Shown here one piece after another: positions 43,854-64,000 of a stretch of DNA of 64,000 nucleotides (its first letter is position 1; every line of letters starts with the position of its first letter). This DNA is from Escherichia coli (lineage in GTDB: Bacteria > Pseudomonadota > Gammaproteobacteria > Enterobacterales > Enterobacteriaceae): the NCBI RefSeq assembly GCF_003991155.1, contig NZ_CP031293.1. One strand, written 5' to 3'. Position numbers and translations under genes: made by a program. The notes below the pieces were generated by a model. It ran no database searches. It was not told the origin of the DNA and was given only the letters and a program-made list of their open reading frames with translations.

Positions 43854-44952
43854 ATGTTTGAAATTAATCCGGTAAATAATCGCATTCAGGACCTCACGGA
43901 ACGCTCCGACGTTCTTAGGGGGTATCTTTGACTACGACGCCAAGAAAGAGCGTCTGGAAGAAGTAAACGCCGAGCTGGAACAGCCGGATGTCTGGAACGA
44001 ACCCGAACGCGCACAGGCGCTGGGTAAAGAGCGTTCCTCCCTCGAAGCCGTTGTCGACACCCTCGACCAAATGAAACAGGGGCTGGAAGATGTTTCTGGT
44101 CTGCTGGAACTGGCTGTAGAAGCTGACGACGAAGAAACCTTTAACGAAGCCGTTGCTGAACTCGACGCTCTGGAAGAAAAACTGGCGCAGCTTGAGTTCC
44201 GCCGTATGTTCTCTGGCGAATATGACAGCGCCGACTGCTACCTCGATATTCAGGCGGGGTCTGGCGGCACGGAAGCACAGGACTGGGCGAGCATGCTTGA
44301 GCGTATGTATCTGCGCTGGGCAGAATCGCGTGGTTTCAAAACTGAAATCATCGAAGAGTCGGAAGGTGAAGTGGCGGGTATTAAATCCGTGACGATCAAA
44401 ATCTCCGGCGATTACGCTTACGGCTGGCTGCGTACGGAAACCGGCGTTCACCGCCTGGTGCGTAAGAGCCCGTTTGACTCCGGCGGTCGTCGCCACACGT
44501 CGTTCAGCTCCGCGTTTGTTTACCCGGAAGTTGATGATGATATTGATATCGAAATCAACCCGGCGGATCTGCGCATTGACGTTTATCGCGCGTCCGGCGC
44601 GGGCGGTCAGCACGTTAACCGTACCGAATCTGCGGTGCGTATTACCCACATCCCGACCGGGATCGTGACCCAGTGCCAGAACGACCGTTCCCAGCACAAG
44701 AACAAAGACCAGGCCATGAAGCAGATGAAAGCGAAGCTTTATGAACTGGAGATGCAGAAGAAAAATGCTGAGAAACAGGCTATGGAAGATAACAAATCTG
44801 ACATCGGCTGGGGCAGCCAGATTCGTTCTTATGTCCTTGATGACTCCCGCATTAAAGATCTGCGCACCGGGGTAGAAACCCGCAACACGCAGGCCGTGCT
44901 GGACGGCAGCCTGGATCAATTTATCGAAGCAAGTTTGAAAGCAGGGTTATGA
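43854..44952 (+). CDS. prfB: Peptide chain release factor 2, expressed via +1 programmed frameshift (43854..43928 joined to 43930..44952), 365 aa
   Basis: Frame 0 [25 protein letters not shown] ends at in-frame TGA 43929-43931; the +1 frame continues [18 protein letters not shown]... to 44952 (listed ORF 44071..44952 is the same frame); SPF and GGQ motifs present. Confidence 0.93.
43914..43932 (+). promoter_or_regulatory. prfB autoregulatory +1 frameshift site
   Basis: agggggtatctttgac: internal Shine-Dalgarno-like AGGGGG, then CUU UGA C slippery/stop context. Confidence 0.9.
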
Positions 44953-47318: not shown

Positions 47319-48767
47319 TTATTCTCCATGCTCATTTTTCTTCAGCTTGCGCATCAGAAGCCACATACGTACTGTCCTGACTTTTAAATCTTTATCAGAG
47401 ACGGATTCCTTCACCAGATCAGCATGATGCTGATAGCCATTAAAGAAGACGTTCAGCACAACGGCGCTAAGGGTTGCGAGCATAATGCCGCTATGCAGCA
47501 ACGGTTGCAGTACGGCCGGTAACTTAGAAAAGAAATCGTGAGAGAGCGTCGGAGTCATGCCAACGCCGAGACTGATCGCCACAATATAGAGGTTGTAACG
47601 GTTGGTGGTGTAGTTACAGCGCGACAGAATTCGAATCCCTGTCGCCAGTACCATGCCGAACATCACCAGCCCAGCACCGCCCAGCACAAATTGCGGAATG
47701 GAGGCGACCAGCACCGCCATTTTTGGCACCATGCCAAACAGGATTAATATAATTCCCGAAGAAATACACACCCAGCGGCTATGAACGCGCGTCACGCTAA
47801 CCAGGCCAACGTTTTGTGAAAATGACGTGTGGGGGAAGCTGTTAAACGTTCCGCCTATCATTGTCCCTACGCCATCGACACGCAGCCCGCGAATAATATC
47901 GTGTGAAGAGAGTTTACGACCGACTATTTCACCCAGTGCCAGGAACATCCCCATCGACTCGATAAACACGATGATTAACACGGCAGTCATGGTCAGAATG
48001 GAAACGGGATCGAAAATCGGCATACCAAATGACATCGGCGTGACAATCGCAAACCATGAAGCATCATGTAGCCCGGATAAATTGACTTCATTCATCATCC
48101 ACGAAAGTAAAAAGCCAAATACAATCCCCAGTAATACGGCGACGTTGGACATAAATCCTTTCGCATAGCGAGTAATGAGCAAGATAAAAATTAAGACAGC
48201 AAAGGAGATACCTAAATAAACGGGATTACCATATTGCGGATTTCCTTTACCTCCGGCGGCCCAGTCAATACCCACCTGAATGATGCTAAGCCCGATAGAA
48301 GTAATCACCACACCGGTAACCAGTGGCGGGAATAAAGGCATCAAGCGACCGATAAGTGGCGCTAATAATGTGGTGATAAAACCCGCGGCGATAGTGGCAC
48401 CAAATATCCCCAGCAGGCCGATATCCGGGTTCATCCCAATGGCTATCATTGGTGTTACAGCGGCGAAGGTCACCGACATAATCACCGGCAGGCGGATCCC
48501 CATAAAGCGGCCGATACCGATACATTGCAATAATGTGACGATCCCGCAGCAAAAGAGATCCGAGCTAATGAGCATCGCAATAGCTTCTTTTGAGAGGCCC
48601 AGTCGGTCACCAATCATAAGTGGAACAGCGACTGCACCTGCGTACATGACAAGGACGTGTTGCAGACCGAGTATGATCAGCTTTCCTGGTGATAATATGC
48701 GGTCAACCTCATCAGTTGGGCGGTCTTGCCCAGAAGATGAGGGAAGTTGGGAATCTATGGCGCTCAT
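47319..48767 (-). CDS. uacT: Uric acid/xanthine permease (NCS2/NAT family), 482 aa
   Basis: ORF 47319..48896 trimmed to MSAIDSQLPSSSGQDR; polytopic NAT-family transporter. Confidence 0.88.
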   Translation of the reverse strand: MSAIDSQLPSSSGQDRPTDEVDRILSPGKLIILGLQHVLVMYAGAVAVPLMIGDRLGLSKEAIAMLISSDLFCCGIVTLLQCIGIGRFMGIRLPVIMSVTFAAVTPMIAIGMNPDIGLLGIFGATIAAGFITTLLAPLIGRLMPLFPPLVTGVVITSIGLSIIQVGIDWAAGGKGNPQYGNPVYLGISFAVLIFILLITRYAKGFMSNVAVLLGIVFGFLLSWMMNEVNLSGLHDASWFAIVTPMSFGMPIFDPVSILTMTAVLIIVFIESMGMFLALGEIVGRKLSSHDIIRGLRVDGVGTMIGGTFNSFPHTSFSQNVGLVSVTRVHSRWVCISSGIILILFGMVPKMAVLVASIPQFVLGGAGLVMFGMVLATGIRILSRCNYTTNRYNLYIVAISLGVGMTPTLSHDFFSKLPAVLQPLLHSGIMLATLSAVVLNVFFNGYQHHADLVKESVSDKDLKVRTVRMWLLMRKLKKNEHGE

Positions 48768-49202
48768 CAGTGTTTCTCCTTTCGCCCGCCAGAGTAAAAA
48801 GCAACCGTTTACGTTCATGAAACTGTCTAAATACATGCTCGTGGAGTGCCAGTTTTTGCGAGGAAGGGGAGTTAGAGACAGGAATTGCGGAGGCAATCAC
48901 ATAATCGTGGTTAAACCACGAAAATGAGAAGAGAACCTGACAATGGAATTATCTGTAATTTTCTCATATTGATATTTCATTAATCATTCTGGCATGTCGC
49001 ACTCTCGCATTTAATCGTTTTTATCTGGTTAGCTCTCTTTTGGTCGGCAATGTTGAAATAATGAAAGCGGCACAGATTGAGGGGCAATAATTTGAACTCA
49101 GTCGCAAAATTATAATTAAATCGGCCATGCTACCTAATATATGCCCGTTTATTGCATCGCGAAATTTGAGAAGACATAACTCATTAAATGAAAGGGATGC
49201 AA

Positions 49203-51122
49203 ATGAATAAGTTTATCGCTGCTGAAGCTGCGGAATGTATAGGCTGTCATGCTTGTGAAATTGCCTGTGCGATGGCACATAATCAAGAAAACTGGCCGCT
49301 GAGTCACAGTGACTTTCGACCGCGTATCCACGTTGTAGGGAAAGGCCAGGCTGCGAATCCGGTGGCCTGCCATCACTGCAACAATGCCCCTTGCGTTACG
49401 GCTTGTCCGGTTAATGCTCTGACTTTCCAGCCCGATAGCGTACAACTGGACGAGCAAAAATGTATTGGTTGTAAAAGATGCGCAATCGCTTGCCCCTTTG
49501 GCGTCGTTGAGATGGTCGATACGATTGCGCAGAAATGCGACCTTTGTAACCAGCGCAGTTCCGGCACGCAAGCCTGTATTGACGTCTGCCCAACACAGGC
49601 GTTACGGCTGATGGACGATAAAGGGTTGCAGCAGATAAAGGTGGCCCGCCAGTGCAAAACGGCAGCAGGAAAAGCGTCATCAGACGCTCAGCCATCTCGC
49701 AGTGCAGCGTTGCTCCCCGTTAACTCGCGTAAAGGCGCAGATAAAATTTCAGCGAGTGAACGGAAAACCCACTTTGGCGAAATTTATTGCGGGCTGGATC
49801 CACAACAAGCGACTTATGAGAGTGACCGCTGTGTTTATTGCGCCGAAAAAGCTAACTGCAACTGGCATTGCCCGCTGCATAACGCTATTCCGGATTACAT
49901 CCGTCTGGTGCAGGAAGGAAAGATTATTGAAGCGGCAGAACTTTGCCACCAGACCAGTTCCTTACCCGAAATCTGCGGCAGGGTATGTCCACAGGACCGT
50001 CTTTGTGAAGGCGCATGTACTTTGAAAGATCACTCTGGCGCAGTCTCTATCGGGAATCTGGAACGCTACATCACCGATACTGCGTTGGCGATGGGCTGGC
50101 GTCCCGATGTCAGCATGGTGGTTCCCCGTAGCGAAAAAGTGGCGGTGATTGGCGCTGGGCCTGCAGGATTAGGGTGTGCTGATATCCTGGTGCGCGCGGG
50201 AGTTCAGGTTGATGTCTTTGATCGTCATCCAGAAATTGGCGGTATGCTGACTTTTGGCATTCCTCCTTTCAAACTCGATAAAACAGTCTTAAGCCAGCGG
50301 CGAGAGATATTCACCGCAATGGGAATCGACTTTCATCTTAACTGTGAAATTGGCCGCGATATTACCTTTAGCGATTTAACTTCTGAATATGATGCAGTTT
50401 TCATCGGCGTGGGGACTTACGGGATGATGCGAGCAGATCTGCCGCATGAAGATGCGCCCGGTGTCATTCAGGCTCTACCGTTCCTGACGGCCCATACCCG
50501 CCAGCTCATGGGGTTGCCGGAGTCTGAAGAGTATCCGCTGACGGATGTGGAAGGTAAGCGAGTCGTGGTATTGGGCGGTGGCGATACGACCATGGATTGT
50601 TTGCGGACTTCCATCCGCCTCAATGCCGCCAGCGTGACCTGCGCGTATCGTCGTGATGAAGTCAGTATGCCGGGCTCGCGCAAAGAGGTGGTCAATGCGC
50701 GCGAGGAAGGTGTCGAGTTTCAGTTCAATGTTCAGCCGCAATATATCGCTTGTGACGAAGATGGGCGTTTAACTGCGGTGGGCCTGATTCGTACCGCCAT
50801 GGGTGAGCCGGGGCCGGATGGTCGCCGTCGTCCTCGTCCGGTAGCGGGTTCAGAGTTTGAATTGCCCGCCGATGTTCTCATTATGGCCTTTGGTTTCCAG
50901 GCGCATGCCATGCCGTGGTTGCAGGGCAGCGGAATTAAACTCGATAAATGGGGCCTGATTCAAACCGGTGACGTCGGGTATTTACCTACCCAGACGCATC
51001 TGAAAAAAGTCTTTGCTGGTGGTGATGCTGTTCATGGCGCGGATCTGGTTGTCACTGCAATGGCCGCAGGAAGGCAGGCGGCGCGCGATATGTTAACTCT
51101 GTTTGATACGAAGGCATCGTGA
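49203..51122 (+). CDS. ygfT: Fused 4Fe-4S ferredoxin / pyridine-nucleotide-disulfide oxidoreductase (GltD-like), 639 aa
   Basis: ORF 49188..51122 trimmed to [22 protein letters not shown]; multiple CxxCxxCxxxCP motifs then an FAD/NAD(P)-binding GAGPAG domain. Confidence 0.88.
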
Positions 51123-51610
51123 TGAAATCGTTAATTATCGTTAATCCGGCTGACTGTATTGGCTGCCGTACTTGTGAAGTAGCCTGTGTGGTCGCTCACC
51201 CTTCAGAACAGGAGTTGAATGCCGATGTCTTTTTACCCCGGCTGAAGGTACAGCGACTGGACAGCATCAGTGCGCCGGTGATGTGCCATCAGTGTGAAAA
51301 CGCCCCTTGTGTTAGCGCTTGCCCCGTGGGGGCGCTGACGATGGGCGAGCAGGTGGTGCAGACCAATTCTGCCCGTTGTATTGGCTGTCAGAGTTGCGTC
51401 AGTGCGTGCCCGTTTGGAATGATCACCATTCAGTCGTTGCCGGGGGATACCCGGCAACAAATCGTGAAATGCGATCTCTGTGAACAGCGGGAAGAGGGGC
51501 CAGCCTGCGTTGAATCTTGCCCAACACAGGCGCTGCAGTTGCTTACTGAAAGAGAACTCAGGCGAGTCCGCCAGCAGCGTATTGTTGCCAGCGGTGAGAA
51601 TCCTCTGTGA
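51119..51610 (+). CDS. ygfS: 4Fe-4S ferredoxin-type protein, 163 aa
   Basis: ORF 51119..51610; four Cys clusters; start overlaps the ygfT stop. Confidence 0.88.
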
Positions 51611-51650
51611 AAGAAATCTCCGCGCTGAAAGGCGCGGAGAATCTATTAGA
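51611..51650. terminator. Bidirectional terminator between convergent ygfS and ygfQ
   Basis: tctccgcgctgaaaggcgcggaga hairpin (51617-51640) with T-rich flank on the minus strand. Confidence 0.6.
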
Positions 51651-53013
51651 TTGCCCAACCACCCGCGTAAAATGCGACCAGTGCGGCAGTAATGATCACC
51701 GTACCAATATTCAGCTTTTGCCATTCGCGGGCAAAGACGCGGCCTACGACCAGTGTCACAAAGCCCAGCATAATACCGGTAACGATATTACAAGTCAGAA
51801 CGATGAACACGGCACACACCAGGCCAGCCATTGCGTCAATAAAATCATTGAAATCCAGCTTCGAGACGTTACTTAACATCAGCAAACCTACGTACATCAG
51901 AGCGGGTGCAGTGGCGTAACCAGGGATCAAAAATGACAGCGGTGATAAGAACAGAATCAGCAGGAATAACGCCCCCACTACGGTTGCGGTTAACCCTGTT
52001 TTACCCCCGGCGGCGGTTCCTGCCGCTGATTCGATATAAACCGCTGCGGGCGCTGCGCCCACCAGGCCGGAGAATATTGAACTTACTGAGTCACTGGTCA
52101 GGGCTTTGCCGCCGTTGATGATCTGGTTGTCTTTATCCAACAAATTCGCCTGACCGGCGACGGCACGGATGGTGCCAGTGGCGTCGAACACTGCGGTCAT
52201 CACCAATGCCAGTACACTCGGAAGTACAGTTGGCTGGAGTGCGCCCATAATATCGAGGCTGAAAATCAGAGACTTACCATCTTCGCCAGTCAGGCTTGGC
52301 ATCGCCACCAGACCGTGGTATTTCACCGCTGGATCAAAGATTAAGCCGATGATCGAGATGGCAATAATCACCAACAAGATCCCGCCGGGTACGCGGCACT
52401 TTTCCAGACCGAAGATGACCGCCAGCCCCAGTAAGCTCATCATCACCGGGAAGGAGGTAAACGCACCGAGTGCCACTGGCAAGCCTTCAATCGGGTTTTT
52501 GATAACCATTCCCACACCGTTAGCAGCAATCAGCAGCAGAAACAGGCCGATACCGATACCTGTACCGTGAGCTATCCCCATCGGTAAATTACGTAAGATC
52601 CAGGTACGCACACCGGTTACGGAAATGGCGGTGAAGATGACGCCCATCAGAAAGACCGCGCCCAGTGCGACAGGAACGCTAATTTGTTGCCCGAGTACCA
52701 GACTGAATGCGGTAAACGCCGTCAGGGAAATCGCGCAACCAATCGCCATTGGCAAATTGGCCCATAACCCCATCAGCAACGAGCCGAAGCCCGCGACCAG
52801 ACAGGTGGCAACAAACACAGCTGCGGGAGGAAAACCTGCTTTGCCCAGCATTCCCGGAACAACGATAACGGAATAAACCATGGCCAGAAAGGTCGTTAAG
52901 CCAGCCAGTACTTCCTGACGAACGGTACTGCCACGAGCGGTAATTTTAAAATAATTATCCAGCGCGCCTTGTGGCTTTGGTGCGTCCGGTGTTTGTAGGA
53001 TGTCTCCAGACAT
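51646..53013 (-). CDS. ygfQ: Putative purine permease (NCS2-related), 455 aa
   Basis: ORF 51646..53013; polytopic membrane transporter. Confidence 0.85.
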
Positions 53014-53048
53014 AATGATGTCCTCACGAGGATGTTAAAGTTTTATTA

Positions 53049-54368
53049 TTAGTTGCGTTCGTACACCAGACGACCATCAACGTAGGTGCGGTAGATCGAA
53101 CGGTCATCGCCCAACGTCATCATCACGAACAATTTGTCGACTAAAGAAACAGAGTTGTCATAGCGCAGCTGCTGTAGCGGAGTGGCGGTGGGTTCCATCA
53201 CCACGAAATCAGCCTCTTTGCCAGGTAAAAAGTTGCCAATCAAATCGTCAAGGCCCAGAGATTTCGCTCCGCCGAGCGTGGCCAGGTAAAATGCTTCATA
53301 TGCCGAGAGGCGATAGCCTTGTAGTTGCAACACTTTGTAGGCTTCGTTTAGCGTTTGCAGCATGTTGAAAGTTGTTCCGGCACCGATATCCGTTCCCATG
53401 CCCACTTTGACTTTCTTCTGCCATGCTTTTTTCAAGTTGAATAAGCCGCTGCCGAGGTAAAGGTTGGAGGTCGGACAGAAAGCAATGCTGGATTTGGTTT
53501 CGCTGAGACGATCCCACTCTTTTTCTTCGAGATGGACGCAGTGAGCAAAGACACAGTTTTTACCGGTCAGGCCGTACTGATGGTAAACATCCAGATAACC
53601 ATCATGGTCAGGATAAAGAGATTTCACCCAGGCAATTTCATCTTTGTTTTCACAGAGATGGGTATGTACCCACGTATCCGGATATTCTTCTTTCAGGCGT
53701 TGCGCCATCGCCATCTGTTCAGGAGATGAGGTAGGGGCGAAGCGTGGCGTAATCGCATACAACAGACGACCATTTTTGTGCCAGCGCTCGATCAGTTCTT
53801 TGCTTTGGTGATAGCTGCTTTCGGCAGTGTCGAGCAGATAATCCGGTGCGTTGCGGTCCATCATCACCTTACCGGCAATCATACGCATATTGATATGACT
53901 GGCGGCTTCAAACAGCGCATCAACGGATTGCGGATGAACAGTGCCAAACACCAGCGCCGTGGTGGTTCCGTTACGTAAAAGCTGCTTGATGAAGAATGCC
54001 GACATTTCGCGGGCGTACTCTAAATCCTCATAACGACGTTCAGTAGGGAAGGTGTGTTTATTCAACCATTCCAGCAATTGCTCACCATAGGCCCCCACCA
54101 TTTCACTTTGCGGATAATGGATATGTGTATCGACAAAGCCCGGTACTATCAGTTTGCCGCGATAGTCGCGCACGCGAATGGTGTCAGGAATTTGATGCTT
54201 TCCGTTTTCCCATTCGCCAAACCATTCCACTTTTCCCTGTTTAATGAGTAATAAACCATCCTCAATAAACCGCAGCGCAGAGGCAATCTCTTCCGGGTTA
54301 TCGACCGTACGGGTGACATCAATAAAACTGCCTCGTACCGCTTTTAACGTGTGTTCTCCTGACATCAT
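53049..54368 (-). CDS. guaD: Guanine deaminase, 439 aa
   Basis: ORF 53049..54488 trimmed to MMSGEHTLKAVRGSF (the longer form would overlap xanQ); amidohydrolase metal-binding motifs (FVDTHIH). Confidence 0.9.
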   Translation of the reverse strand: MMSGEHTLKAVRGSFIDVTRTVDNPEEIASALRFIEDGLLLIKQGKVEWFGEWENGKHQIPDTIRVRDYRGKLIVPGFVDTHIHYPQSEMVGAYGEQLLEWLNKHTFPTERRYEDLEYAREMSAFFIKQLLRNGTTTALVFGTVHPQSVDALFEAASHINMRMIAGKVMMDRNAPDYLLDTAESSYHQSKELIERWHKNGRLLYAITPRFAPTSSPEQMAMAQRLKEEYPDTWVHTHLCENKDEIAWVKSLYPDHDGYLDVYHQYGLTGKNCVFAHCVHLEEKEWDRLSETKSSIAFCPTSNLYLGSGLFNLKKAWQKKVKVGMGTDIGAGTTFNMLQTLNEAYKVLQLQGYRLSAYEAFYLATLGGAKSLGLDDLIGNFLPGKEADFVVMEPTATPLQQLRYDNSVSLVDKLFVMMTLGDDRSIYRTYVDGRLVYERN

Positions 54369-54382
54369 TGACTCCTTTACTG

Positions 54383-55783
54383 TTAATCCATCTCTTCCGC
54401 TGAGGTAATACCAGGCAGAACGTTTTCCTGTCGGTAGCCACCAGGGAGGATAATATTTAATAAAATCGCAGTTAACCCGCCGGCACAAATAGGGTTTTCA
54501 ACTAATACATAAATAGAGGCTGGCAATATTTTAAAAATTTCGGGATCGTAGGAGACGCCAAGCCCTAAACCTAAAGAAGTGGCGACAATAAGTGTTTCAC
54601 GCCGCTTTAATCCGTTGGTGATGATGATGCGAATCCCAGCGATGGCAATCATGGAAAACATCAACGTCATTGCGCCTCCCAGAACTGCCGAGGGAATGGT
54701 CGTGAAGAAGCCGCCAATCATCGGAAATAAGCCGAGGATAACCAGCATTACCGCGATGGTTCGCCCGACATAACGTGAAGCGACGCCAGTCATCTGAATA
54801 ACCCCATTATTTTGCGCAAACGTGGTTAATGGTAATGAACCGACAGCGGAGGCGATAACAGAAACCAGACCATCTGCCAGCACGCCGCCTTTCAGTCGGG
54901 ACTGATACTCTTCCCCCTGAATGGGGCGGCGGGAAACCATTGCCGTGGCGGTGATATCGCCGACTGCTTCCAGCACGCTAAGCAGATAAATCGTGCCAAC
55001 CACCAGGAACTGATGGAAGCTAAAACTAAAGCCGTATTTGAACGGATGCGGGATGGTGATTAACGGCAAATTGCGCATACTGCTGAAATCCACCATGCCC
55101 AGGCATAACGATGCGATATAGCCGACACATAGCCCAATGGCGATCCCTCCCATGCGTAGCAACGGACTGCGACAGCAGTTAAAGCCGATCACCACAATTA
55201 AAACCAATAAACCAACGCCGAGATGTTCGTAATTGCCGAACGTACCGCTGCTTTTGGCTGCAAATCCTCCACCAAAATCGATAATGCCGACTTTAATCAG
55301 GCTTAAGCCGATCATCAGCACCACAATGCCGCTGACGGTAGGCGTAATAACCCGACGTAAATAGGGCAGGATAAAAGAAGAGCCGACAACCAGAAATGCG
55401 CCAACGAAGGAGACGCCGAGGAGCGACGACATGATTAACTCTTCGTGAAAACCGTCGCTTTTCATGCTGCTGCCCAGCGCAATCATGACCGTAACAAATG
55501 AAAAATTGACTGACTGAATTGAGAGAAGACCAGAACCGACGATGCCGTAGCGGTTTACCTGTAACCAGGTACCAATACCAGAGGCGATCATCGCCATAGA
55601 AACAAGATAGGCCGTTGTTTCAGCGGAAAGCTGTAAGGCCGCACCCACGATTAACGCGGGGGTTACCATCGGAACGAAAATTGCCAACAGATGGGTAATG
55701 GCACCTACGAGAGCCTGATGAAAGGGAGGGCGATCCTCCAGTTCAAATATAAGGTCAGAACCTGCATGGTTTATATCAGACAT
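54383..55783 (-). CDS. xanQ: Xanthine permease (NAT family), 466 aa
   Basis: ORF 54383..55840 trimmed to MSDINHAGSDLIFELEDRPPFHQA. Confidence 0.9.
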   Translation of the reverse strand: MSDINHAGSDLIFELEDRPPFHQALVGAITHLLAIFVPMVTPALIVGAALQLSAETTAYLVSMAMIASGIGTWLQVNRYGIVGSGLLSIQSVNFSFVTVMIALGSSMKSDGFHEELIMSSLLGVSFVGAFLVVGSSFILPYLRRVITPTVSGIVVLMIGLSLIKVGIIDFGGGFAAKSSGTFGNYEHLGVGLLVLIVVIGFNCCRSPLLRMGGIAIGLCVGYIASLCLGMVDFSSMRNLPLITIPHPFKYGFSFSFHQFLVVGTIYLLSVLEAVGDITATAMVSRRPIQGEEYQSRLKGGVLADGLVSVIASAVGSLPLTTFAQNNGVIQMTGVASRYVGRTIAVMLVILGLFPMIGGFFTTIPSAVLGGAMTLMFSMIAIAGIRIIITNGLKRRETLIVATSLGLGLGVSYDPEIFKILPASIYVLVENPICAGGLTAILLNIILPGGYRQENVLPGITSAEEMD

Positions 55784-55904
55784 CCCTTCACTCCTTTTAA
55801 AGTAAATTTGATCATCTGAATTAGTAAAATAAATTCCCACGAATTTGGGGCGCAGGACGCCTTGAGAACGGCTTATCTCATTTTCGCAGTCACTATTTAG
55901 TCAT

Positions 55905-55940
55905 CGTTCAAACAGAGAAACAGGCCGCCGAAGCGGCCAT
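55905..55940 (-). terminator. Intrinsic terminator after xdhD
   Basis: ggccgcttcggcggcc hairpin directly after the xdhD stop, followed by tgtttctctgttt on the minus strand. Confidence 0.6.
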
Positions 55941-55947
55941 TTATTAC

Positions 55948-58818
55948 TTATATTTTTTCCAGCGCGGTGAGTATTTTCTCCGGTGTGAAATGCCATTCGC
56001 GTAACCAGATGCCGCAGGCATCGTGAATTGCGGTAGCAATCGCCGGAGCGGCGCCATTTACACCGATTTCCGAGATCGATTTCGCCCCGAATGGGCCGAC
56101 TTTATCGTCGCTCGGCACCAGCACAGCGCGGAAATCACGCGGAATGTCACCAATTTTCGGTGCGCCGTAACTGCGTAAATCACGCGTTAAGGGGTGACCT
56201 TCGGCGTCATAAATGATTTCTTCGCTCATACTGTGGCCGATTGCACGAAGGGTGGCACCGTAGATTTGTCCCAACGCTAACTCTGGATTGACCGGTGTAC
56301 CGCAATCCAGCAAGGCGTAGAATTTATCCAGGCGGATTTCACCCGTACGCGTGTTGACGGCAACTTCAGCAAAGTTTGCGCCATACGGGAAGGCGAAATC
56401 AGGCGTGATATAACTGCCAGTTCCCACCAGTGAACCAAAGCCTGTGCCGGTTTCGCCTTTATGGGCAATATCCCCGAAACTAACTTCGCCTTTCTTGCCG
56501 CGTACGACGCCCGGCGTTGCTAGTTGGACATCTGCCACTGGCTCACCCAACATTTGCGCACCGTGGAAAAGAATTTTCTCCCGCAGATTTTCTGCTGCCA
56601 AACGCGCCGCGTTACCCGAGAAGCAAGTACCGGACGAGGCATATGCGCCTTTATCAAACAACGCATGATCGGTATCACCGGAGATAACATGCACGTCCTG
56701 CGGTGGGCAGTGCAGCACTTCTGCTGCCAGTTTCGTCACCACGGTATCCAGACCAGTACCAATATCCGCACCGCCAGAATGAACGATAAAGGTACCGTCT
56801 GATTCCAGTTTGATCATGCAGTTAGCCTGATCGATATCCGGGATCCCTGATTTCTGCATGATAATGGCGACGCCACGACCGATGTGCCAGTCACCGTTTT
56901 GTGGTTTTGGTGAAGACCATTGGATCATCTCGCGACCCTGACGCAGGATCTCTTCCAGTGCGCAGCTGGCGGCGGAAGGAACGGAGGTCGGCGCTTTACC
57001 TTCACCGATTGCACCGAGAATTTTCAGCTCTTGCCCTTCGTGTACCCGGTTACGTTCGATAATTTCCAGTTGGTCGATCTGTAACTGTTCAGCCAGTTCC
57101 GCTAATGCCATGGTGATAGCGAAGTTACCTTTCGGTGCGCCATAACCCTGATAAGCACCATTTGGGCAAATGTTGCTGTAGTAGGTGGTGACCTGGAAAT
57201 CGACGTTATCGCACGGATATAACGGCAGCGACAGCGCCGGCCCGTTACACGGTACGGTGAGTGAGTGGTTGCCGTAAGGGCCAGTGTTGGCGCGGAAATC
57301 CATCTTCACTGCCGTCAGGCGACCATCTTTTTTCGCGCCCAGTTTGACGGTGACTTTCGCTACGTGACGAGAAGTGTTAGCAATAAACTCTTCTTCACGG
57401 GTATAGCGGAACAGTACCGGACGCCCGGTCACGCAGGTTGCCCAGGCGCACACTTCTTCCAGCAGGATGTCCTGTTTAGAACCAAAACCGCCGCCTACAC
57501 GTTCTTTAATGACATGAACTTTATGTTGTTTCATGCCCACGAGGCGCGCGACCTGGCGGCGTAAGTGCCATGGTACCTGGGTGGAGGCGTGGATCACCAG
57601 ACGATCGCCGTCCATACGGGTAAAGCAGATATGTGTTTCAGTCGGGCACTGCTGCGCCTGCGTTGAGTTATAGGTTCGCTCAATGATCACATCGGCATCG
57701 GCAAAGCCTTTGTCCATATCGCCAATATGACCATGAATACTGGCAGCGATATTTTTGCGTGGGCGAGAACCGATCGGGAAGTTGATGATCATATGCTCGC
57801 CGCGCTGGGCTGCATGGCTGTTATCATCTTCCAGAGTATCTGGCGCACCAGCAACATACACCACCGGTTCATCGTGCACGACAGGCGCATCTTCCGCCAT
57901 TGCCTCGTCAATCGACATTACCGGCTTAAGCACTTCATATTCAACGTCGATGAGCTTCAGTGCTTCGAGCGCAATTTCTTCACTTTCTGCGACGACCGCA
58001 GCAACGCGATCGCCGACGTGACGCATTTTCTTGCCGAACATACGGCGGTCAAGCGGTGACGGTTCCGGTGCGCTCTGACCACCCGGGGTATAGTAGATAT
58101 CTGGGCAATTCAGGTGAGTAATAACGTGAACGACGCCCGGTAAGGCTTCAGCTTTGCTGACATCCAGATGAGTAATCAGTGCGTGAGCGTGTGGGCTACG
58201 TAACATTTTAATGACGCAGGCGTCAGCCGTTACGCGGTCTTCAACATAGCAGGGTTTCGCCTGCACCATTTTCGCGGCATCAGTTTTAGGATAATGCTTG
58301 CCAATGACTTCAAGGTCGTCACGGAAAGTCGGAGCGATATCAATGGTGGCCTGCGGATTATTTTTACGTGCAACCGCCAGTTCAATGACCTGGTAGTATT
58401 GCTGCCAGCCAGCATCGCGGCTAAACAGACCTGAGAGCGCGTCGTCGATCTCTTCGCGGGTCGGTGCGGCAATGCGATCGAGAAGATCGGTGATAATCAG
58501 AGCCGCAGCTGGATCGTTATAACCAGACTGCACCACGCCAACATCAACCATGGCCTGTTGAACCAGACTTAACTCGTTCCATTTGCCCAGAGATTCTGCG
58601 GTACGAATATCTGCCTTCTCTAACTGTGCGGCGATAAGCAAGGACGCGTTAACGATATTACCGTTAAAGATAATTGCGTCAGAACCGGCAAACCCGAATC
58701 CATCATCGCTGTTGCGTACAGAGTGCATTCCCACGTTAAACAACAGCTTTTGCACGTTTTCGCCTGGATTAACGGTTAGCTCCTGAGGCGCGCCATTTAA
58801 AGTAAAGTGGATGATCAT
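55948..58818 (-). CDS. xdhD: Molybdopterin-dependent hydroxylase, fused 2Fe-2S/molybdenum-binding subunit (xanthine dehydrogenase family), 956 aa
   Basis: ORF 55948..58818; matches recalled XdhD (YgfN). Confidence 0.9.
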   Translation of the reverse strand: MIIHFTLNGAPQELTVNPGENVQKLLFNVGMHSVRNSDDGFGFAGSDAIIFNGNIVNASLLIAAQLEKADIRTAESLGKWNELSLVQQAMVDVGVVQSGYNDPAAALIITDLLDRIAAPTREEIDDALSGLFSRDAGWQQYYQVIELAVARKNNPQATIDIAPTFRDDLEVIGKHYPKTDAAKMVQAKPCYVEDRVTADACVIKMLRSPHAHALITHLDVSKAEALPGVVHVITHLNCPDIYYTPGGQSAPEPSPLDRRMFGKKMRHVGDRVAAVVAESEEIALEALKLIDVEYEVLKPVMSIDEAMAEDAPVVHDEPVVYVAGAPDTLEDDNSHAAQRGEHMIINFPIGSRPRKNIAASIHGHIGDMDKGFADADVIIERTYNSTQAQQCPTETHICFTRMDGDRLVIHASTQVPWHLRRQVARLVGMKQHKVHVIKERVGGGFGSKQDILLEEVCAWATCVTGRPVLFRYTREEEFIANTSRHVAKVTVKLGAKKDGRLTAVKMDFRANTGPYGNHSLTVPCNGPALSLPLYPCDNVDFQVTTYYSNICPNGAYQGYGAPKGNFAITMALAELAEQLQIDQLEIIERNRVHEGQELKILGAIGEGKAPTSVPSAASCALEEILRQGREMIQWSSPKPQNGDWHIGRGVAIIMQKSGIPDIDQANCMIKLESDGTFIVHSGGADIGTGLDTVVTKLAAEVLHCPPQDVHVISGDTDHALFDKGAYASSGTCFSGNAARLAAENLREKILFHGAQMLGEPVADVQLATPGVVRGKKGEVSFGDIAHKGETGTGFGSLVGTGSYITPDFAFPYGANFAEVAVNTRTGEIRLDKFYALLDCGTPVNPELALGQIYGATLRAIGHSMSEEIIYDAEGHPLTRDLRSYGAPKIGDIPRDFRAVLVPSDDKVGPFGAKSISEIGVNGAAPAIATAIHDACGIWLREWHFTPEKILTALEKI

Positions 58819-59594
58819 ACGGCTTCCTCCCCAGCCTGTTGGCAGTCGGCATACAGGTCGGCTACCAGAACTCCCGTGATATAGCGTTTATAGGCCACGC
58901 TGCCCCGCAAATCTTCCTGCGGGAAAATGGCGTTGGCGACAGCCTGTTCAAGTGCATTGCCTTCCAGGTTTTGTTTTTCAACATCGTGCAGACGCAGTGC
59001 TTTACTGGCGACGCCATCCAGCGCAATTCGCATACCGTCGTGGTCTGTCATTGCAACGGCTGCCGTCACGACGGTTAAACCTGCCTGAGAACGGCTAATT
59101 TTGCGGGTCGCACAGGTGCGATACGGATCTTTAATGATAATTTCGGTTAACAGGCGATCGCATGGGCAGGCCAGGTAGTCCTCGATTGACAGCGTTTCGC
59201 CGTTGCCAAAAACCAGTTCAGCATCCAGTGCCAGCAGGACGGGAAGCAGCACCGACTCTTCCTGCCGGGCGGCGATTTCACCACCAATGGTCGACTGATT
59301 ACGAACATGGCGTGAGTAAACAAAACCGAGAGCTTCACGCAGTGCTGCAGGAATAAATCGTGCATCACGCAGTGACTGCAAGCGAGACATTGCGCCAATT
59401 CGTAGTGCACCGTTATCCCAGTCAATCCAGTCCAGCTCCAGATCCTGCAAGGAAATGGCAATCTTTTTATCGGTACGGGTTGGTGTAGCGTTGAGTTTGC
59501 TGCCCCCGGCGAACCAGACGGCTTCATCCTGGTAGCGGCGCTTCAGTTCCAGCGCTTGTTCGACAGAGTCGGGTCTGAAAAATTGTTCAATCAT
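58815..59594 (-). CDS. ygfM: FAD-binding subunit of a molybdopterin hydroxylase (CO dehydrogenase flavoprotein-like), 259 aa
   Basis: ORF 58815..59594; stop overlaps the xdhD start (translational coupling). Confidence 0.85.
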   Translation of the reverse strand: MIEQFFRPDSVEQALELKRRYQDEAVWFAGGSKLNATPTRTDKKIAISLQDLELDWIDWDNGALRIGAMSRLQSLRDARFIPAALREALGFVYSRHVRNQSTIGGEIAARQEESVLLPVLLALDAELVFGNGETLSIEDYLACPCDRLLTEIIIKDPYRTCATRKISRSQAGLTVVTAAVAMTDHDGMRIALDGVASKALRLHDVEKQNLEGNALEQAVANAIFPQEDLRGSVAYKRYITGVLVADLYADCQQAGEEAV

Positions 59595-59644
59595 CGTCTT
59601 TCCTTAATTTCCCCTCTTCTCTGAAAGAAGAGGGGAGCTGTTAT

Positions 59645-60973
59645 TTATGCCAGCGCATCCATCCGACGCCACATACTGGCAGCGGCTTTTCTGGCTTGCG
59701 CATAAATGGAATCGCAATCGAAGTTAAACTGACGGTCTTCATAGACCATCACACCATTGACCATCACGCTGTGAACGCTGCCTGAGCCCATACCGAAAGC
59801 GATATGCCCGGCGATATTGTCTGCCAGCAGCGGCGTCGGCGAGTTGTAATCGCAAATGGTTAAATCGGCTTTGTAACCGGCTTCCAGAAGCCCAAATTTC
59901 GCGCCAAAGTTGCGGCTCATCAGTTCGTTGCCGTTAGCCAGTGCTTTGGCAAAACTGTCAGGCCACAGCGGGCCACCCGCATCGCGATGTTTAAAGAAGG
60001 CAAATTTCATCTCTTCAAACATGTCCGAACCAATGCCGTCCGTTCCCAACGCCAGATTGCGGATGTCGCTAAGGTGATGGTTGTAGCCGACATGGTTGTT
60101 CATGTTTGAACGGGCGTTATGCACCAGGAACGCATCGCGCTGATTGAGTAGGGTGATGTCATCTTTCGACAAGTACAGCCCATGAGCGACCAGCGTTTTG
60201 CTGTCGATGAGATCGAATTGCGTCAGTCGTGCCAGTAGGTCTTTGCCGTACCAGTGGTGACTGTAGGAAACGTCGTAAAGGTCTTCCGCAGCGTGAATAT
60301 GCAAACCACGACCTGTGGTTTTCACGGCTTCACGCAGCATCTCCAGACCGGCATCCGGCACGGTAAACGGCGCGTGAGCGCCGATATGTGCTTCCACCAG
60401 ATACGGCTCGGTTGCTGCTTTCTTCGCCTCATCAATCTGACGGGCGAAGCGGATGTTTTCTTCTACACCTTCCTGCAACTCTTTGATGCCGCTGTTACGG
60501 TCAGTAGTTTCAAAACAGGTCATCGCGCGCAGGCCAACTTTTAAAAATGCGTCGCGCAATGTGGAGAGTGACCCGCCGATATAGGCTGGAGAGGCATGGT
60601 GATCGATAACCGATGTACATCCGCTCTTAATCGCTTCCAGGGAACAAATCAGTCCGCTGTAATAGAGCGACTCTTCATCAAGGGCGCGATCGAGCCGCCA
60701 CCAGAGATTTTTCAGCGTTGAGATGAAATCCGGGCAGGGGGCGATATTTGCCATAATTCCGCGGGAAAGTCCCGAGTAAAAATGGTTATGCGAGCAGACA
60801 ATTCCCGGCATCACAATCCGACCATGCATCTCTTTGTAGCTGGCATCGGGGTAGCGTTGCGTCAGGGCATCGCCGATAGCGACAATCACATCATTTTCGA
60901 TGGCGATATCAACGCCTTCCTGCACTTTCGCCGGGTGTAACTGCACTGCGGTGACATTCTTCAGAATCAACAT
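59645..60973 (-). CDS. ssnA: Amidohydrolase-family protein SsnA (putative aminohydrolase), 442 aa
   Basis: ORF 59645..60973; metal-dependent hydrolase HxH motif (VCSHNHFYSG). Confidence 0.88.
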   Translation of the reverse strand: MLILKNVTAVQLHPAKVQEGVDIAIENDVIVAIGDALTQRYPDASYKEMHGRIVMPGIVCSHNHFYSGLSRGIMANIAPCPDFISTLKNLWWRLDRALDEESLYYSGLICSLEAIKSGCTSVIDHHASPAYIGGSLSTLRDAFLKVGLRAMTCFETTDRNSGIKELQEGVEENIRFARQIDEAKKAATEPYLVEAHIGAHAPFTVPDAGLEMLREAVKTTGRGLHIHAAEDLYDVSYSHHWYGKDLLARLTQFDLIDSKTLVAHGLYLSKDDITLLNQRDAFLVHNARSNMNNHVGYNHHLSDIRNLALGTDGIGSDMFEEMKFAFFKHRDAGGPLWPDSFAKALANGNELMSRNFGAKFGLLEAGYKADLTICDYNSPTPLLADNIAGHIAFGMGSGSVHSVMVNGVMVYEDRQFNFDCDSIYAQARKAAASMWRRMDALA

Positions 60974-60975
60974 GA

Positions 60976-63900
60976 TTACACCTCCACGCGGCCCAGCAGA
61001 TAATGATGATGCTGGTGGACATGGCTAATAATGCGGCACATATCGTTCAGCTCCGGTGGTACGTTGTTGAACTGACCTTCGCTGTCGATGTTTAACACCC
61101 AGCTTTGGTTATTCAGACGTACTCGTACCCGGCAATCTTCCACAAGGAAGCCTGGGTTGCTGCTGTTATCAAAGTCTTGCGACAGGCTGAAGACGGTGAT
61201 TTTGTCTTTGTACGGTTTACCGTTCCACGGGCAGAATTGGGCGCAGTTGCCGCATTCGTTGCAGTAGGCATCGAGATGCAGCGTCTGGAAACGGTTCTGG
61301 AAGCCAGGAACCGCAATGGAGACGTTGGCGCGGTTCGGGCAGACATCCACACACTTGCTGCAAACGTAGTTACATTCAAGGCAGCGTGCGGCTTCCTGGG
61401 CGACAAACGCGTCACGATCGTCACTGTTCACCAGAGTGATAGAGATATCGCCTTTACGTTGATAGATTTCCGCCGGATTGACGTTGTTCCAGTATTTATC
61501 GTTCTGGTGGGAACGGATATTTTCCCTACTCAGGATTGCATCGGTCGCCCGACGCGCGGTTCCGACAGCAGCGACAATGGAGGATGGTCCGCGCTGTACG
61601 TCGCCGATCATAAAGACGTCAGTCAGACGCGTTTCGCCATTATGGTCGACGTCTGGCCAGCCGTTTTTGTCCAGCGGCACGCCCATTGCATTCAGGGCTT
61701 CAGTATCCTGCTGTTCACCAATGGCGGTGATCAGGCTGTCTACATGCAGCGTTACTGTTTCGTTGGTTTCAACCGGACGGCGACGACCTTTCTCATCAGG
61801 TTCGCCAAGCGACATAACGCGCAAGGTTAAGGTGCCATTAGCATCGAAACGTTCCGGATTATTCAGAAAACGGAACTCCACGCCGTCGTGCAACGCTTCT
61901 TCATACTCTTCGCGCCATGCTGGCATCTCTTGCAGTGAACGACGGTAAACGACCGTTGCTTTTTCTACGCCTGGAACGCGTAACGCCGCACGAGCGCAGT
62001 CCATTGCGGTGTTACCCGCCCCGACAACGACCACATGTTTGCCCAGCTTGAGCGCTGTGCCCTTGTTGTATTCACGCAGGAAGGGGAGTGATTTCCAGAC
62101 ATTTTGGTTGTCGCCCGCCAGTTTCACACCGCTATTTTTATCAGTGCCGGTGGCAATCAGAACATAGTGGAAGCCCTGATTTTTTAACTGTTCAACGGTC
62201 AGATCGGGTGAGCAGCCATACTCAAATTTCACGCCGTGAGCGGCAACAAAATCGATATCGTGCTGAATTAACTCTGCAGGAATACGGAACTGAGGAATGA
62301 TATTTTTCACCACGCCGCCCGCGTTGGCTTCGCGTTCAAACAGCGTAACCGGATGGCCCGCTCTGGCAAGGAAGTAACCTGCGGCCAGACCCGCCGGACC
62401 TGCACCAATCACGGCAACCGGATGGCGTGAACCAGAACCGGCTGGTTTGTGCCAGCGTTGCTTATATTCATCCCAACCTTTTTCCAGCGCGACTTTTTTC
62501 AGTTCGCGGATATTCAGCGCACTGTCGTAATCCAGGCGGGTACAGTTGTATTGGCACTGGTGATCGCAAATATGACCGGTAATGGCGGGCAGGGCGTTGC
62601 GTTGATAGATGAGTTCCAGCGCGTCGGCATAGCGGTGTTCGCCAAGCAGACGGATGTATTCCGGAATATCTTGCTTGATAGCGCAGGCAGTAACACAGGG
62701 GGCAACGTAGCAATCGGTCAGCGGCAGGTCTTCAGCCACTTCAATACGCTCTTCTGGCTTCCAGTGTTTCTGGGTGTATTCCATGGTTAACGCATCTGCT
62801 GCCAGTCTGTTCAGTCGTTCGACGTCAACATGGTCAAGTCCCCAGGCATCGGAGCCTTCCAGCTCGCGCATGCAGGCACTTAAGCGCAGATAGCCGCCAG
62901 GTTTCAGCAGGTCGGTTGCCATAGTAATAGGGCGAATACCAGTATCAAAAATATCGCGGATAGTCAGCTGACTGGCACCACCGGAATAAGAAATGGGCAG
63001 TTTGCCGTCAAAGGCGCGAGAGAGAACTGCTGCAACGTTGATGGAGAGCGGGAACAGCGCACGGCCTGACATATACATCTCTTCACCAGGCAGTGCGCCT
63101 TTATTGTTGATGGTGCCGAGAGTGTTAGTCAGTTTTACGCCAAAGCCGAGTGATTTTTCTTTTGCCAGTGCCATCAGGCGTTCCAGCATTTCCAGCGCTT
63201 GCGTCAGCTTGAGGTCGTGATCAAATGACTCTTCTTTTAAGCCTATGTAACCGAAACCGCAGACATCGAGGATCTCACGAACACGCGCGTACCCCAGTAA
63301 GGTCGGGTTGAGTTTCACAAAGGTATTGAGCCCTTTTTCTTCCAGCATGTAGCGGCAAATGGCTTCGATTTCATGCGGAGGACAGCCGTGCATCGTGGAG
63401 AGGGTGACGCCCTGCACCATACTGGTGGGGATGCGAGCGGGTAAGGCTTGCAAGCTTTCGCGTTTTTCCTGCAATCCGTGGTGGGCTAAAAATGCGTCAT
63501 CCTGGAGTAATTTATTCAGCGTATCGCGATATTGAGCGAATTTCGGATGGTCAGATGCGTCCATCATATTGTCGATGAACTGTTGCATCGGCGGTTGCTT
63601 AATACCTTCGAGGTTGTAACCGACGCTCATATTAAAGATGAACGATTTACTGGAATCAGAAGGCTGGAAGATCGCTTCGAGAAGGTGCAGGGCAAACCAG
63701 GCTTTGAGGTATTCATCCCAGGCTTTAAGCAGGGTAAATTCGGTGGACCATTCGGTGTTAAAGCACTCGTCTTCGGCATCAATACAGGGCTTTTCCAGCT
63801 CCAGGCGGTCAAGAATTTGGACGGTTTTTAGTTCGATGAAACGTCCGCCAGTCAGCCAGGAAGTGACAATATTTTGCGCGAGCTGCGTGTGCGGGCCAGC

Positions 63901-64000
63901 GGCAGGGCCGACGGGAGTGGCACAGGTTTCACCGAAGACGCTAACAGTTTTACCTTTTACGGGTGAGTAAAACTGTTGCTCGGGAATACCAAAGATTGAG
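60976..64000 (-). CDS. ygfK: Putative Fe-S/FAD oxidoreductase YgfK, 3' ~1008 codons; 5' end beyond the window
   Basis: ORF 60976..63630 stays open in frame upstream to the window edge (...SIFGIPEQQFYSP...EWSTEFTLLKAWDEYLKAWFALHLLEAIFQPSDSSKSFIFNMSVGY); GltD-like FAD/NAD domain and C-terminal 4Fe-4S motifs. Confidence 0.9.
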   Translation of the reverse strand, partial: SIFGIPEQQFYSPVKGKTVSVFGETCATPVGPAAGPHTQLAQNIVTSWLTGGRFIELKTVQILDRLELEKPCIDAEDECFNTEWSTEFTLLKAWDEYLKAWFALHLLEAIFQPSDSSKSFIFNMSVGYNLEGIKQPPMQQFIDNMMDASDHPKFAQYRDTLNKLLQDDAFLAHHGLQEKRESLQALPARIPTSMVQGVTLSTMHGCPPHEIEAICRYMLEEKGLNTFVKLNPTLLGYARVREILDVCGFGYIGLKEESFDHDLKLTQALEMLERLMALAKEKSLGFGVKLTNTLGTINNKGALPGEEMYMSGRALFPLSINVAAVLSRAFDGKLPISYSGGASQLTIRDIFDTGIRPITMATDLLKPGGYLRLSACMRELEGSDAWGLDHVDVERLNRLAADALTMEYTQKHWKPEERIEVAEDLPLTDCYVAPCVTACAIKQDIPEYIRLLGEHRYADALELIYQRNALPAITGHICDHQCQYNCTRLDYDSALNIRELKKVALEKGWDEYKQRWHKPAGSGSRHPVAVIGAGPAGLAAGYFLARAGHPVTLFEREANAGGVVKNIIPQFRIPAELIQHDIDFVAAHGVKFEYGCSPDLTVEQLKNQGFHYVLIATGTDKNSGVKLAGDNQNVWKSLPFLREYNKGTALKLGKHVVVVGAGNTAMDCARAALRVPGVEKATVVYRRSLQEMPAWREEYEEALHDGVEFRFLNNPERFDANGTLTLRVMSLGEPDEKGRRRPVETNETVTLHVDSLITAIGEQQDTEALNAMGVPLDKNGWPDVDHNGETRLTDVFMIGDVQRGPSSIVAAVGTARRATDAILSRENIRSHQNDKYWNNVNPAEIYQRKGDISITLVNSDDRDAFVAQEAARCLECNYVCSKCVDVCPNRANVSIAVPGFQNRFQTLHLDAYCNECGNCAQFCPWNGKPYKDKITVFSLSQDFDNSSNPGFLVEDCRVRVRLNNQSWVLNIDSEGQFNNVPPELNDMCRIISHVHQHHHYLLGRVEV

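Follow-up and report, generated by a model that had tools for sequence, protein, structure and literature searches.

We analyzed a 64,000-nt stretch of Escherichia coli DNA (contig NZ_CP031293.1 of assembly GCF_003991155.1; hereafter, the window), in which positions 47319-64000 are occupied by a block of ten genes, uacT, ygfT, ygfS, ghxQ (ygfQ), guaD, xanQ, xdhD, ygfM, ssnA and ygfK. The gene content, gene order and matches to curated protein models all fit the known E. coli island for purine uptake and anaerobic uricolysis, and we estimate the probability that this identification is correct at roughly 0.85. A preliminary description, made from the sequence alone, had listed the block as one of unresolved function, and had held that the substrates of XdhD/YgfM, SsnA and YgfK were not established; the latter statement was superseded by two studies from 2025 (Li et al., PMC12507026; Liu et al., bioRxiv 10.1101/2025.04.24.650524), which assigned the main enzymes biochemically, so that the original observation is largely explained and the system is an already known one. 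Unresolved function is thus no longer an apt label for XdhD/YgfM, SsnA and YgfK, but it still applies to the biochemical role of YgfT, for which only genetics is available, and to YgfS.

The assignment is carried by published biochemistry. Li et al. (PMC12507026) purified E. coli XdhD together with a co-purifying protein of about 30 kDa, taken to be YgfM, and the preparation supplied with NADH converted urate to 2,8-dioxopurine ("yanthine") by removal of the C6 oxygen, while YgfK and SsnA with NAD(P)H converted yanthine to ureidomethyl-hydantoin; HyuA, YgeW, YgeY and YgeX finish the route to pyruvate. In the same study, urate accumulated in the ΔxdhD strain, no ureidomethyl-hydantoin was formed in the ΔygfK strain, and xanthine was not consumed in the ΔxdhA strain. 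Liu et al. (bioRxiv 10.1101/2025.04.24.650524) arrived at the same pathway independently, using reconstitution and the tracing of isotopes in both Clostridium sporogenes and E. coli, and identified YgfK as NADPH:2,8-dioxopurine oxidoreductase, an activity on which selenate has no bearing. Both studies and their remaining open points are summed up in a commentary (PMC12990295).

Projected onto the window, the published scheme begins with UacT (47319-48767, minus strand), a urate/H+ symporter of the NCS2 family, which imports urate. XdhD (55948-58818, minus strand), the molybdenum (Mo) subunit of the urate reductase (2,8-dioxopurine dehydrogenase), then strips the C6 oxygen from urate, acting together with the ~30-kDa protein taken as the FAD-binding subunit YgfM (58815-59594, minus strand). 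YgfK (60976-64000, minus strand, continuing past the window end), an iron-sulfur (Fe-S) flavoenzyme that depends on NAD(P)H and is built like dihydropyrimidine dehydrogenase (DPD), reduces the pyrimidine ring of 2,8-dioxopurine, and the amidohydrolase SsnA (59645-60973, minus strand) opens the reduced ring of the dihydro-2,8-dioxopurine by hydrolysis to ureidomethyl-hydantoin, from which HyuA, YgeW/YqeA, YgeY and YgeX complete the route to pyruvate, ammonia and ATP. On the supply side, the xanthine/H+ symporter XanQ (54383-55783), the guanine/hypoxanthine transporter GhxQ (51646-53013) and the guanine deaminase GuaD (53049-54365), all encoded on the minus strand, provide for uptake of xanthine, guanine and hypoxanthine and for conversion of guanine to xanthine, and XdhABC oxidizes xanthine to urate. 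The sequence of the window bears out the key elements of reductive uricolysis: its hydroxylase is of the XdhD type (2120 bits to TIGR03313, against a cut-off of 1102), with E606 present and conserved in relatives, and a YgfK (or UacX) reductase and the SsnA amidohydrolase adjoin. The uricolytic cluster of E. coli K-12 and Nissle studied by Li et al. and Liu et al. has the same genes in the same order, and the window represents the same locus in another strain, differing in nothing of substance, except that it holds only the uacT-to-ygfK half, with ygfK cut by the window end. The conversion of urate via 2,8-dioxopurine to ureidomethyl-hydantoin is assigned to this locus from these two reports (PMC12507026; bioRxiv 10.1101/2025.04.24.650524).

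The block is ordinary E. coli chromosome: in megablast searches all 16,682 of its 16,682 bases are identical (100%) to several complete E. coli chromosomes, it is covered to at least 80% in 5160 of 5426 complete E. coli genomes, and most E. coli genomes are 95-99% identical across it. Gene names and coordinates were transferred from the RefSeq annotation of an identical strain, and each open reading frame (ORF) was rechecked by direct translation. Together with megablast, these checks confirmed the gene identities and compact arrangement that had been read from the sequence, as well as the two reported stop/start overlaps, which amount to 1 nt between the ygfT TGA and the ygfS ATG and to 4 nt (ATGA) between the ygfM TGA and the xdhD ATG; the ygfK stop lies 2 nt from the ssnA start. 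In agreement with the same description, translation revealed no internal stop or in-frame UGA in any of the ten ORFs, none of which qualifies as a selenocysteine protein. An ATG start codon with a Shine-Dalgarno-like sequence ahead of it is present in each of the nine complete ORFs, and the first 25 codons of ygfK, including its start, fall beyond the window end, up to which its frame is open. An 884-aa "ygfK" ORF in the program-made list is an artefact of listing at the window edge and not the result of a true in-frame stop, because the translated frame stays open to the window end.

NCBIfam cut-offs were clearly exceeded by YgfT, XdhD, YgfM (TIGR03312, 490 bits), SsnA (TIGR03314, 737 bits), YgfK (TIGR03315, 1735 bits) and GuaD (NF006679, 739 bits; TIGR02967, 634 bits). 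UacT, named by RefSeq and encoded by an intact ORF, scored 509.8 bits to TIGR03173 and passes the xanthine-permease subfamily model; XanQ, also a RefSeq name (TIGR00801, 455 bits), passes the NCS2 superfamily model only, reaching 413.7 bits against a subfamily cut-off of 414.15. GhxQ, which has an intact ORF and is named after RefSeq, and YgfS have no NCBIfam model of their own. Pfam domain content is consistent with the gene identities. Past the window end, the identical strain carries mocA, yqeC and yqeB upstream of ygfK, followed by yqeA(arcC), hyuA, ygeY, ygeX(dpaL), ygeW, ygeV and xdhCBA; the downstream pathway genes hyuA, ygeW/yqeA, ygeY and ygeX are annotated no more than 10 kb beyond the window.

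Database names over 55948-64000 ("putative selenate reductase subunit YgfK", "Mo/Fe-S-binding subunit", "2Fe-2S iron-sulfur cluster-binding protein, partial") clash with both the 2025 biochemistry and the sequence. Taken literally, RefSeq and NCBIfam naming would make ygfK-ssnA-ygfM-xdhD (ygfKLMN) a selenate reductase, an idea that originated in a 2002 genetic study, as cited in PMC2276186. Selenate, however, is neither required by YgfK nor stimulates it, and the enzyme specifically reduces 2,8-dioxopurine (bioRxiv 10.1101/2025.04.24.650524); XdhD yields yanthine from urate, and the phenotypes of ΔxdhD and ΔygfK are purine-related (PMC12507026). The selenium association is better explained by a selenium-dependent cofactor trait, and we regard a selenate reductase as highly improbable. 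It is also very unlikely that XdhD is a second hypoxanthine/xanthine oxidase for purine salvage, redundant with XdhABC, as might be suspected from its 30% identity to XdhA and from older predictions giving both enzymes xanthine dehydrogenase activity: ΔxdhA cells leave xanthine unconsumed despite an intact xdhD, the ΔxdhD strain accumulates urate, and the product of the purified enzyme is 2,8-dioxopurine rather than xanthine (PMC12507026). This exclusion is not absolute, because the xanthine test was run in glucose medium, in which the cluster is repressed. Nevertheless, the "selenate reductase" and "hypoxanthine oxidase" readings are both contradicted by experiment. An isomerase function for XdhD, in which xanthine would be converted to yanthine in a redox-neutral manner and no electron wire would be needed, was considered as well and is weakened by the same xanthine result in ΔxdhA cells, with the same reservation as to glucose medium. 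Finally, a proposal based on genomic reasoning holds that the island serves to break down oxidized or modified derivatives of guanine, releasing guanidine, and not urate itself (PMC12623156); biochemistry and isotope tracing identify urate and 2,8-dioxopurine as the substrates, whereas that proposal is genomic only, and we consider it highly improbable.

The proposed connection of the region to a labile selenium cofactor held up, and the genes expected upstream of ygfK were indeed found just past the window end, in the order mocA, yqeC, yqeB, providing the co-occurrence with yqeB (TIGR03309) and yqeC that accompanies this trait. The same yqeB/yqeC neighbourhood is seen in Klebsiella and in a Holophaga-like metagenome-assembled genome, the latter also with selD. 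Early comparative genomics had already linked the region to the selenium-dependent molybdenum hydroxylase trait (PMC2276186), and a requirement for selenium was shown in C. sporogenes and C. difficile, the clostridial enzyme for the first step depending on SelD as well and having no use for NAD(P)H (bioRxiv 10.1101/2025.04.24.650524). The C. sporogenes DOPDH (XdhAC) and the C. difficile XdhD variant carry out the same first reaction, followed by YgfK/SsnA-type steps, and are linked to yqeB, yqeC and selD, as here. The clostridial enzyme differs from E. coli XdhD in having Fe-S-binding domains and in being without a YgfM FAD subunit, and makes no use of NAD(P)H; XdhD is paired with an FAD subunit but contains none of the Fe-S ligands.

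The absence of Fe-S ligands in E. coli XdhD was not expected. The catalytic part of the protein is that of a molybdenum hydroxylase (Pfam MoCoBD_1, MoCoBD_2 and Ald_Xan_dh_C), with GGGFG at position 448, the catalytic Glu917 and Glu606, which was proposed to orient urate, all intact; the Mo-cofactor-binding fold, GGGFG and the catalytic Glu are shared with canonical xanthine dehydrogenases (E. coli XdhABC, R. capsulatus XdhAB, bovine XOR) and with the D. gigas aldehyde oxidoreductase MOP. XdhD differs from all of these in acting at C6 in the reductive direction and in the substitution of all eight [2Fe-2S] cysteines. Its residues 1-165 (58324-58818, minus strand) are homologous to the two [2Fe-2S] domains of XdhC (Pfam Fer2_2, 47 bits; 33% identity over 141 residues), but there is no Cys at all within residues 1-189, and in the alignment the eight canonical ligand positions are occupied by D38, A44, D47 and S59 in the first cluster and S98, N101, S133 and D135 in the second (DADS/SNSD, as opposed to CCCC/CCCC in relatives). 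The pair of four-Cys [2Fe-2S] clusters expected in the xanthine oxidase family is missing, although the domain fold is retained, and on these grounds XdhD is best regarded as a member of the family whose Fe-S domain is degenerate. Since a cluster cannot be held by Ala, Asn and the like, XdhD almost certainly lacks both [2Fe-2S] centres, which in every characterized member of the family wire FAD to molybdenum. We found no mention of this loss in the papers and the supplement searched.

The cysteine-less pattern is also present in other Escherichia species and in Citrobacter, in fragments from Vibrio and Photobacterium, and in the gut Firmicute Vescimonas fastidiosa, whose sequence belongs to a 90%-identity cluster with 1913 member sequences. 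Between E. coli and Vescimonas, the Fe-S-like domain is 40-52% identical and the remainder of the protein 50-53%. In a structural model that leans on Cys-containing homologues, the domain is predicted with pLDDT >90, and the fused Fe-S-like/Mo chain has the architecture of MOP, its closest counterpart in this respect (TM-score 0.84/0.89). Judging from the recurrence of the pattern across genera, a conservation of the domain about equal to that of the rest of the protein, and a fold kept in the model, the loss of ligands is not decay. A Holophaga-like relative, 52-56% identical to XdhD, keeps all eight cysteines and resides in a complete ygfK-ssnA-ygfM-xdhD-yqeB-yqeC-selD cluster, while another relative has lost the first cluster alone (DGDG/CCCC). 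The FAD partner is equally well defined: YgfM matches Pfam FAD_binding_5 in addition to TIGR03312, its gene overlaps xdhD, and a YgfM-like FAD gene precedes xdhD in every cluster inspected.

A broader proposition, that XdhD of the E. coli type, with relatives among Citrobacter, Vibrionaceae and gut Oscillospiraceae, has lost both [2Fe-2S] clusters while the cluster domain and the FAD partner are held under purifying selection, appears to us possible but on balance doubtful. If it were true, electrons would reach the Mo centre of XdhD by a route new to the family, for instance from formate through an external Fe-S protein such as YgfS, YgfT or AegA, through an XdhC-type subunit used in common, or by reacting directly at the Mo site; the reported NADH activity of XdhD-YgfM would not be the physiological one; and the cluster-less XdhD would explain why E. 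coli uricolysis requires formate and YgfT/AegA.

The first two of these Fe-S proteins are encoded in the block. YgfT (49203-51122, plus strand) scores 1495 bits against a cut-off of 1154 to the equivalog model NF009451, spans the full length of the YgfT/AegA family, and combines an N-terminal HycB-like part with a GltD-like part (Pfam Fer4_11, Fer4_20 and Pyr_redox_2); 32 Cys fall into its cluster motifs, and its relatives in the PDB are GltD, NfnB, DPD and HycB. YgfS (51122-51610, plus strand), a 162-aa ferredoxin-like protein, is translationally coupled to YgfT. Residues 1-150 of YgfT form a ferredoxin module for four clusters with 16 Cys, and so does YgfS over its whole length, its Cys being arranged as four [4Fe-4S] motifs; the closest solved relatives of both are HycB (E-values 1e-30 to 1e-32) and the HycB3/HycB4 proteins of hydrogen-dependent CO2 reductase (HDCR). 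HycB is the formate hydrogenlyase subunit that holds formate dehydrogenase H, while HycB3 and HycB4 are subunits of HDCR. Residues 176-635 of YgfT can be aligned from end to end with GltD (the small subunit of glutamate synthase), with NfnB and with the N-terminal portion of DPD (E-values 1e-108 to 1e-85 for GltD and NfnB), and homology assigns to this module a pair of [4Fe-4S] clusters along with FAD and a site for NAD(P)H. The two proteins together would hold some ten [4Fe-4S] clusters, a single FAD and a single NAD(P)H site. In contrast to the GltD/NfnB/DPD and HycB systems, no partner catalytic subunit is encoded alongside ygfT-ygfS.

According to accounts given in papers that cite Iwadate and Kato (2019), urate degradation in E. 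coli requires formate, aegA, ygfT and ygeV; in these accounts, the involvement of formate dehydrogenase H is stated for AegA only. AegA, the E. coli paralogue of YgfT, has the same architecture, and such accounts report both proteins as required for formate-dependent urate degradation; unlike ygfT, aegA is located at another chromosomal site without a ygfS-like gene as partner, and shows only modest urate induction. The two 2025 pathway papers contain nothing on YgfT/YgfS beyond a citation, and our literature search returned no reported function for YgfS. We tentatively propose, at somewhat less than even odds, that the HycB-like modules dock formate dehydrogenase H and that electrons taken from formate flow through the GltD-like module of YgfT to NAD(P)+, thereby feeding both reductive steps of the pathway; delivered via YgfT/YgfS, formate electrons would cover the four electrons needed per urate. 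As an alternative outlet, the GltD-like module might hand formate electrons straight to the pathway reductases.

The gene context was examined by scanning genome contigs with YgfT, which yielded 12 close loci, and by exact-protein look-ups for the wider surroundings. A ygfT (or aegA-type) gene with a ygfS-like gene behind it stands head-to-head with uacT or with the molybdenum hydroxylase gene of the cluster in Klebsiella aerogenes, Mixta calida and Buttiauxella; the 1-nt ygfT/ygfS overlap is the same in Klebsiella and Mixta, and in Buttiauxella the uricolytic cluster includes an AegA-type protein and a YgfS-like gene. This comparative context supports a dedicated role of YgfT/YgfS. Could that role be the direct one, in which YgfT/YgfS or AegA make no NAD(P)H but wire low-potential electrons from formate through their [4Fe-4S] chain straight to XdhD or YgfK and so offset the cluster loss in XdhD, with NADH via YgfM being minor or an in vitro effect? 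Such wiring would fit the lack of Fe-S ligands in XdhD, the genetic requirement for formate and YgfT/AegA in E. coli (again as relayed by citing papers), the clostridial enzyme, which uses no NAD(P)H and for which the donor is not known (bioRxiv 10.1101/2025.04.24.650524), and the head-to-head placement of ygfT-ygfS with the molybdenum hydroxylase gene in Mixta and Buttiauxella. However, the presence of YgfT/YgfS does not track the loss of Fe-S ligands in the four cases compared (Klebsiella, Mixta, Buttiauxella and Vescimonas): the first three pair YgfT/YgfS with hydroxylases that retain a canonical [2Fe-2S] subunit, which unties the two traits, and Vescimonas has a Cys-less XdhD with no YgfT in the neighbourhood. 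In addition, the Cys-less domain still fills the place beside the pterin in the predicted structure, and Li et al. (PMC12507026) observed NADH-dependent product formation. We therefore consider direct wiring unlikely.

Several points weigh against reading the block as a fully explained uricolysis island. The assay of XdhD-YgfM in PMC12507026 reports product formation without kinetics, and the route NADH to FAD to Fe-S to Mo does not apply as drawn, because XdhD has lost every [2Fe-2S] ligand. Selenium dependence was demonstrated for Clostridium enzymes and not for that of E. coli. The tie of YgfT to uricolysis is genetic only; moreover, ygfS is absent in Citrobacter sp. R56 (locus L005, 11911-11975) and in Arsenophonus (locus L017, 11950-12518), and is therefore dispensable in some lineages. 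Finally, the link between YgeV and the sequence motif described below is one of association only.

Other genera contain variants of the cluster. Klebsiella aerogenes (locus L015, 1538-5255), Mixta calida (L016, 5918-9626) and Buttiauxella (L013, 5941-9643) have clusters without xdhD-ygfM, which carry a fused Mo+FAD protein of 1071-1074 aa and a canonical small [2Fe-2S] subunit; this pair may be a non-orthologous replacement for the first pathway step. In Vescimonas fastidiosa (locus L020, 5814-12880), genes for an XdhA-like protein, a [2Fe-2S] subunit, an XdhB-like protein, a YgfM-like protein and the Cys-less XdhD form one operon, which hints at functional or physical coupling of two hydroxylases.

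A sigma-54 -24/-12 element, ATGCCCGTTTATTGCA, was read upstream of ygfT at 49141-49156 (plus strand); it is conserved in Escherichia and Citrobacter, and is identical to site OS32, assigned to ygfT in a sigma-54 map obtained by chromatin immunoprecipitation and sequencing (ChIP-seq), in which ygfK, ygeW and xdhA also have sites (PMC4591121). In genome-wide expression data, a module named after YgeV and associated with sigma-54/YgeV contains exactly these operons, and papers citing Iwadate and Kato (2019) relate that ygfT is strongly induced by urate and that its expression falls in a ygeV mutant. Upstream of the ygfT promoter we noted a 13-bp imperfect palindrome, T[AC]TCA-N3-TGATA, present as TCTCATATTGATA at 48962-48974, which may serve YgeV, a sigma-54 activator, as its upstream activator site. 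The motif is common to the upstream regions of the ygfT, ygfK, ygeW and xdhA promoters, where it lies 110-215 bp upstream of the promoter elements. The copy at ygfT is the only one in the entire 64-kb window, with none in 47 kb of unrelated flanking genes; further exact copies are found upstream of ygfK and ygeW, with one more inside ygeX (locus L001, 33014, 42682 and 40838), and xdhA is preceded by two one-mismatch copies 21 bp apart. Because the motif was derived from E. coli, other genera provide the fair test. Indeed, an exact copy is present in six of the seven regulatory spacers of the Klebsiella, Buttiauxella and Mixta clusters (L015, 1284, 9745 and 17220; L013, 3423 and 9832; L016, 3524; shuffle P ≤0.003 each), with no other copy in 66 kb. 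We found no published binding site for YgeV in the literature, and put the motif forward as a candidate for a shared upstream activator site bound by this cluster-encoded regulator.

The divergent gene uacT may be under similar control. A candidate sigma-54 -24/-12 element, TGGCACTCCACGAGCA, at 48836-48851 (minus strand), 69 nt upstream of the uacT start, has GG and GC at the right spacing, and counterparts with conserved GG and GC occur upstream of uacT in Citrobacter, Klebsiella and Arsenophonus. As a single pattern match it is not significant, and it is absent from the published ChIP list; if functional, it would explain the place of uacT in the expression module. The Arsenophonus locus retains just the uacT-ygfT pair. 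A generic scan for sigma-54 patterns gave 36 matches against 44 expected and is not informative by itself; from it we retained just two elements, the ygfT site backed by ChIP and the conserved candidate at uacT. A sigma-70 promoter scan, with 17 sites against 16 expected, was uninformative too. A PurR-box-like sequence, AAGCAACCGTTTACGT, with three mismatches to the consensus, is located just upstream of uacT at 48799-48814, in a stretch conserved in Escherichia and Citrobacter; it is the sole match in the window, against 0.6 expected by chance, and is not significant.

Three hairpins were detected between genes of the block. A bidirectional terminator hairpin at 51617-51640 separates the convergent ygfS and ghxQ (terminator scan; folding z-scores of -5.4 and -6.4 on the two strands). 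A GC-rich hairpin at 55923-55938 (minus strand; terminator scan, -13.7 kcal/mol, z -2.45), located 10 nt past the xdhD stop, could act as an attenuating terminator or as an mRNA-stabilizing stem, possibly separating in part the ygfK-xdhD transcript from that of xanQ-guaD-ghxQ. The 50-nt spacer between ssnA and ygfM contains a 12-bp stem-loop (59609-59637, minus strand; -20.2 kcal/mol, z -4.2, with none of 200 shuffled sequences folding as well), which ends 14 nt ahead of the ygfM start, just upstream of its ribosome-binding site. When searched against Rfam, the complete window yielded only 6S RNA and the Sib antitoxin RNA, both distant from the block, and no riboswitch or known RNA inside the cluster. 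Elsewhere, the window contains ordinary E. coli features: cmtB (1829-2244), which carries a frameshift according to the annotation of the matching strain, a Sib antitoxin RNA overlapping the ibsC toxin gene (24193-24343), 6S RNA (ssrS, 24992-25175), and prfB with its programmed frameshift (43854-44952).

The residual interest of this island lies in the electron route to XdhD, the roles of YgfT and YgfS, and the selenium need of E. coli XdhD, to which the candidate YgeV operator adds a fourth point. The misleading names "selenate reductase subunit" and "Mo/Fe-S-binding subunit" spread into metagenome annotation. In the gut, bacteria equipped with this pathway reduce the uric acid of the host, and E. 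coli engineered for its overexpression is under development as a probiotic for gout (PMC12507026). The first pathway step sets the flux; hence the identity of the XdhD donor, whether NADH, formate via YgfT/YgfS or another, together with the selenium need and switching by YgeV, would shape both strain design and the gut conditions under which the pathway operates. For the molybdenum hydroxylases as a family, the Cys-less Fe-S domain of XdhD offers a clean test case for how electron transfer is organized.

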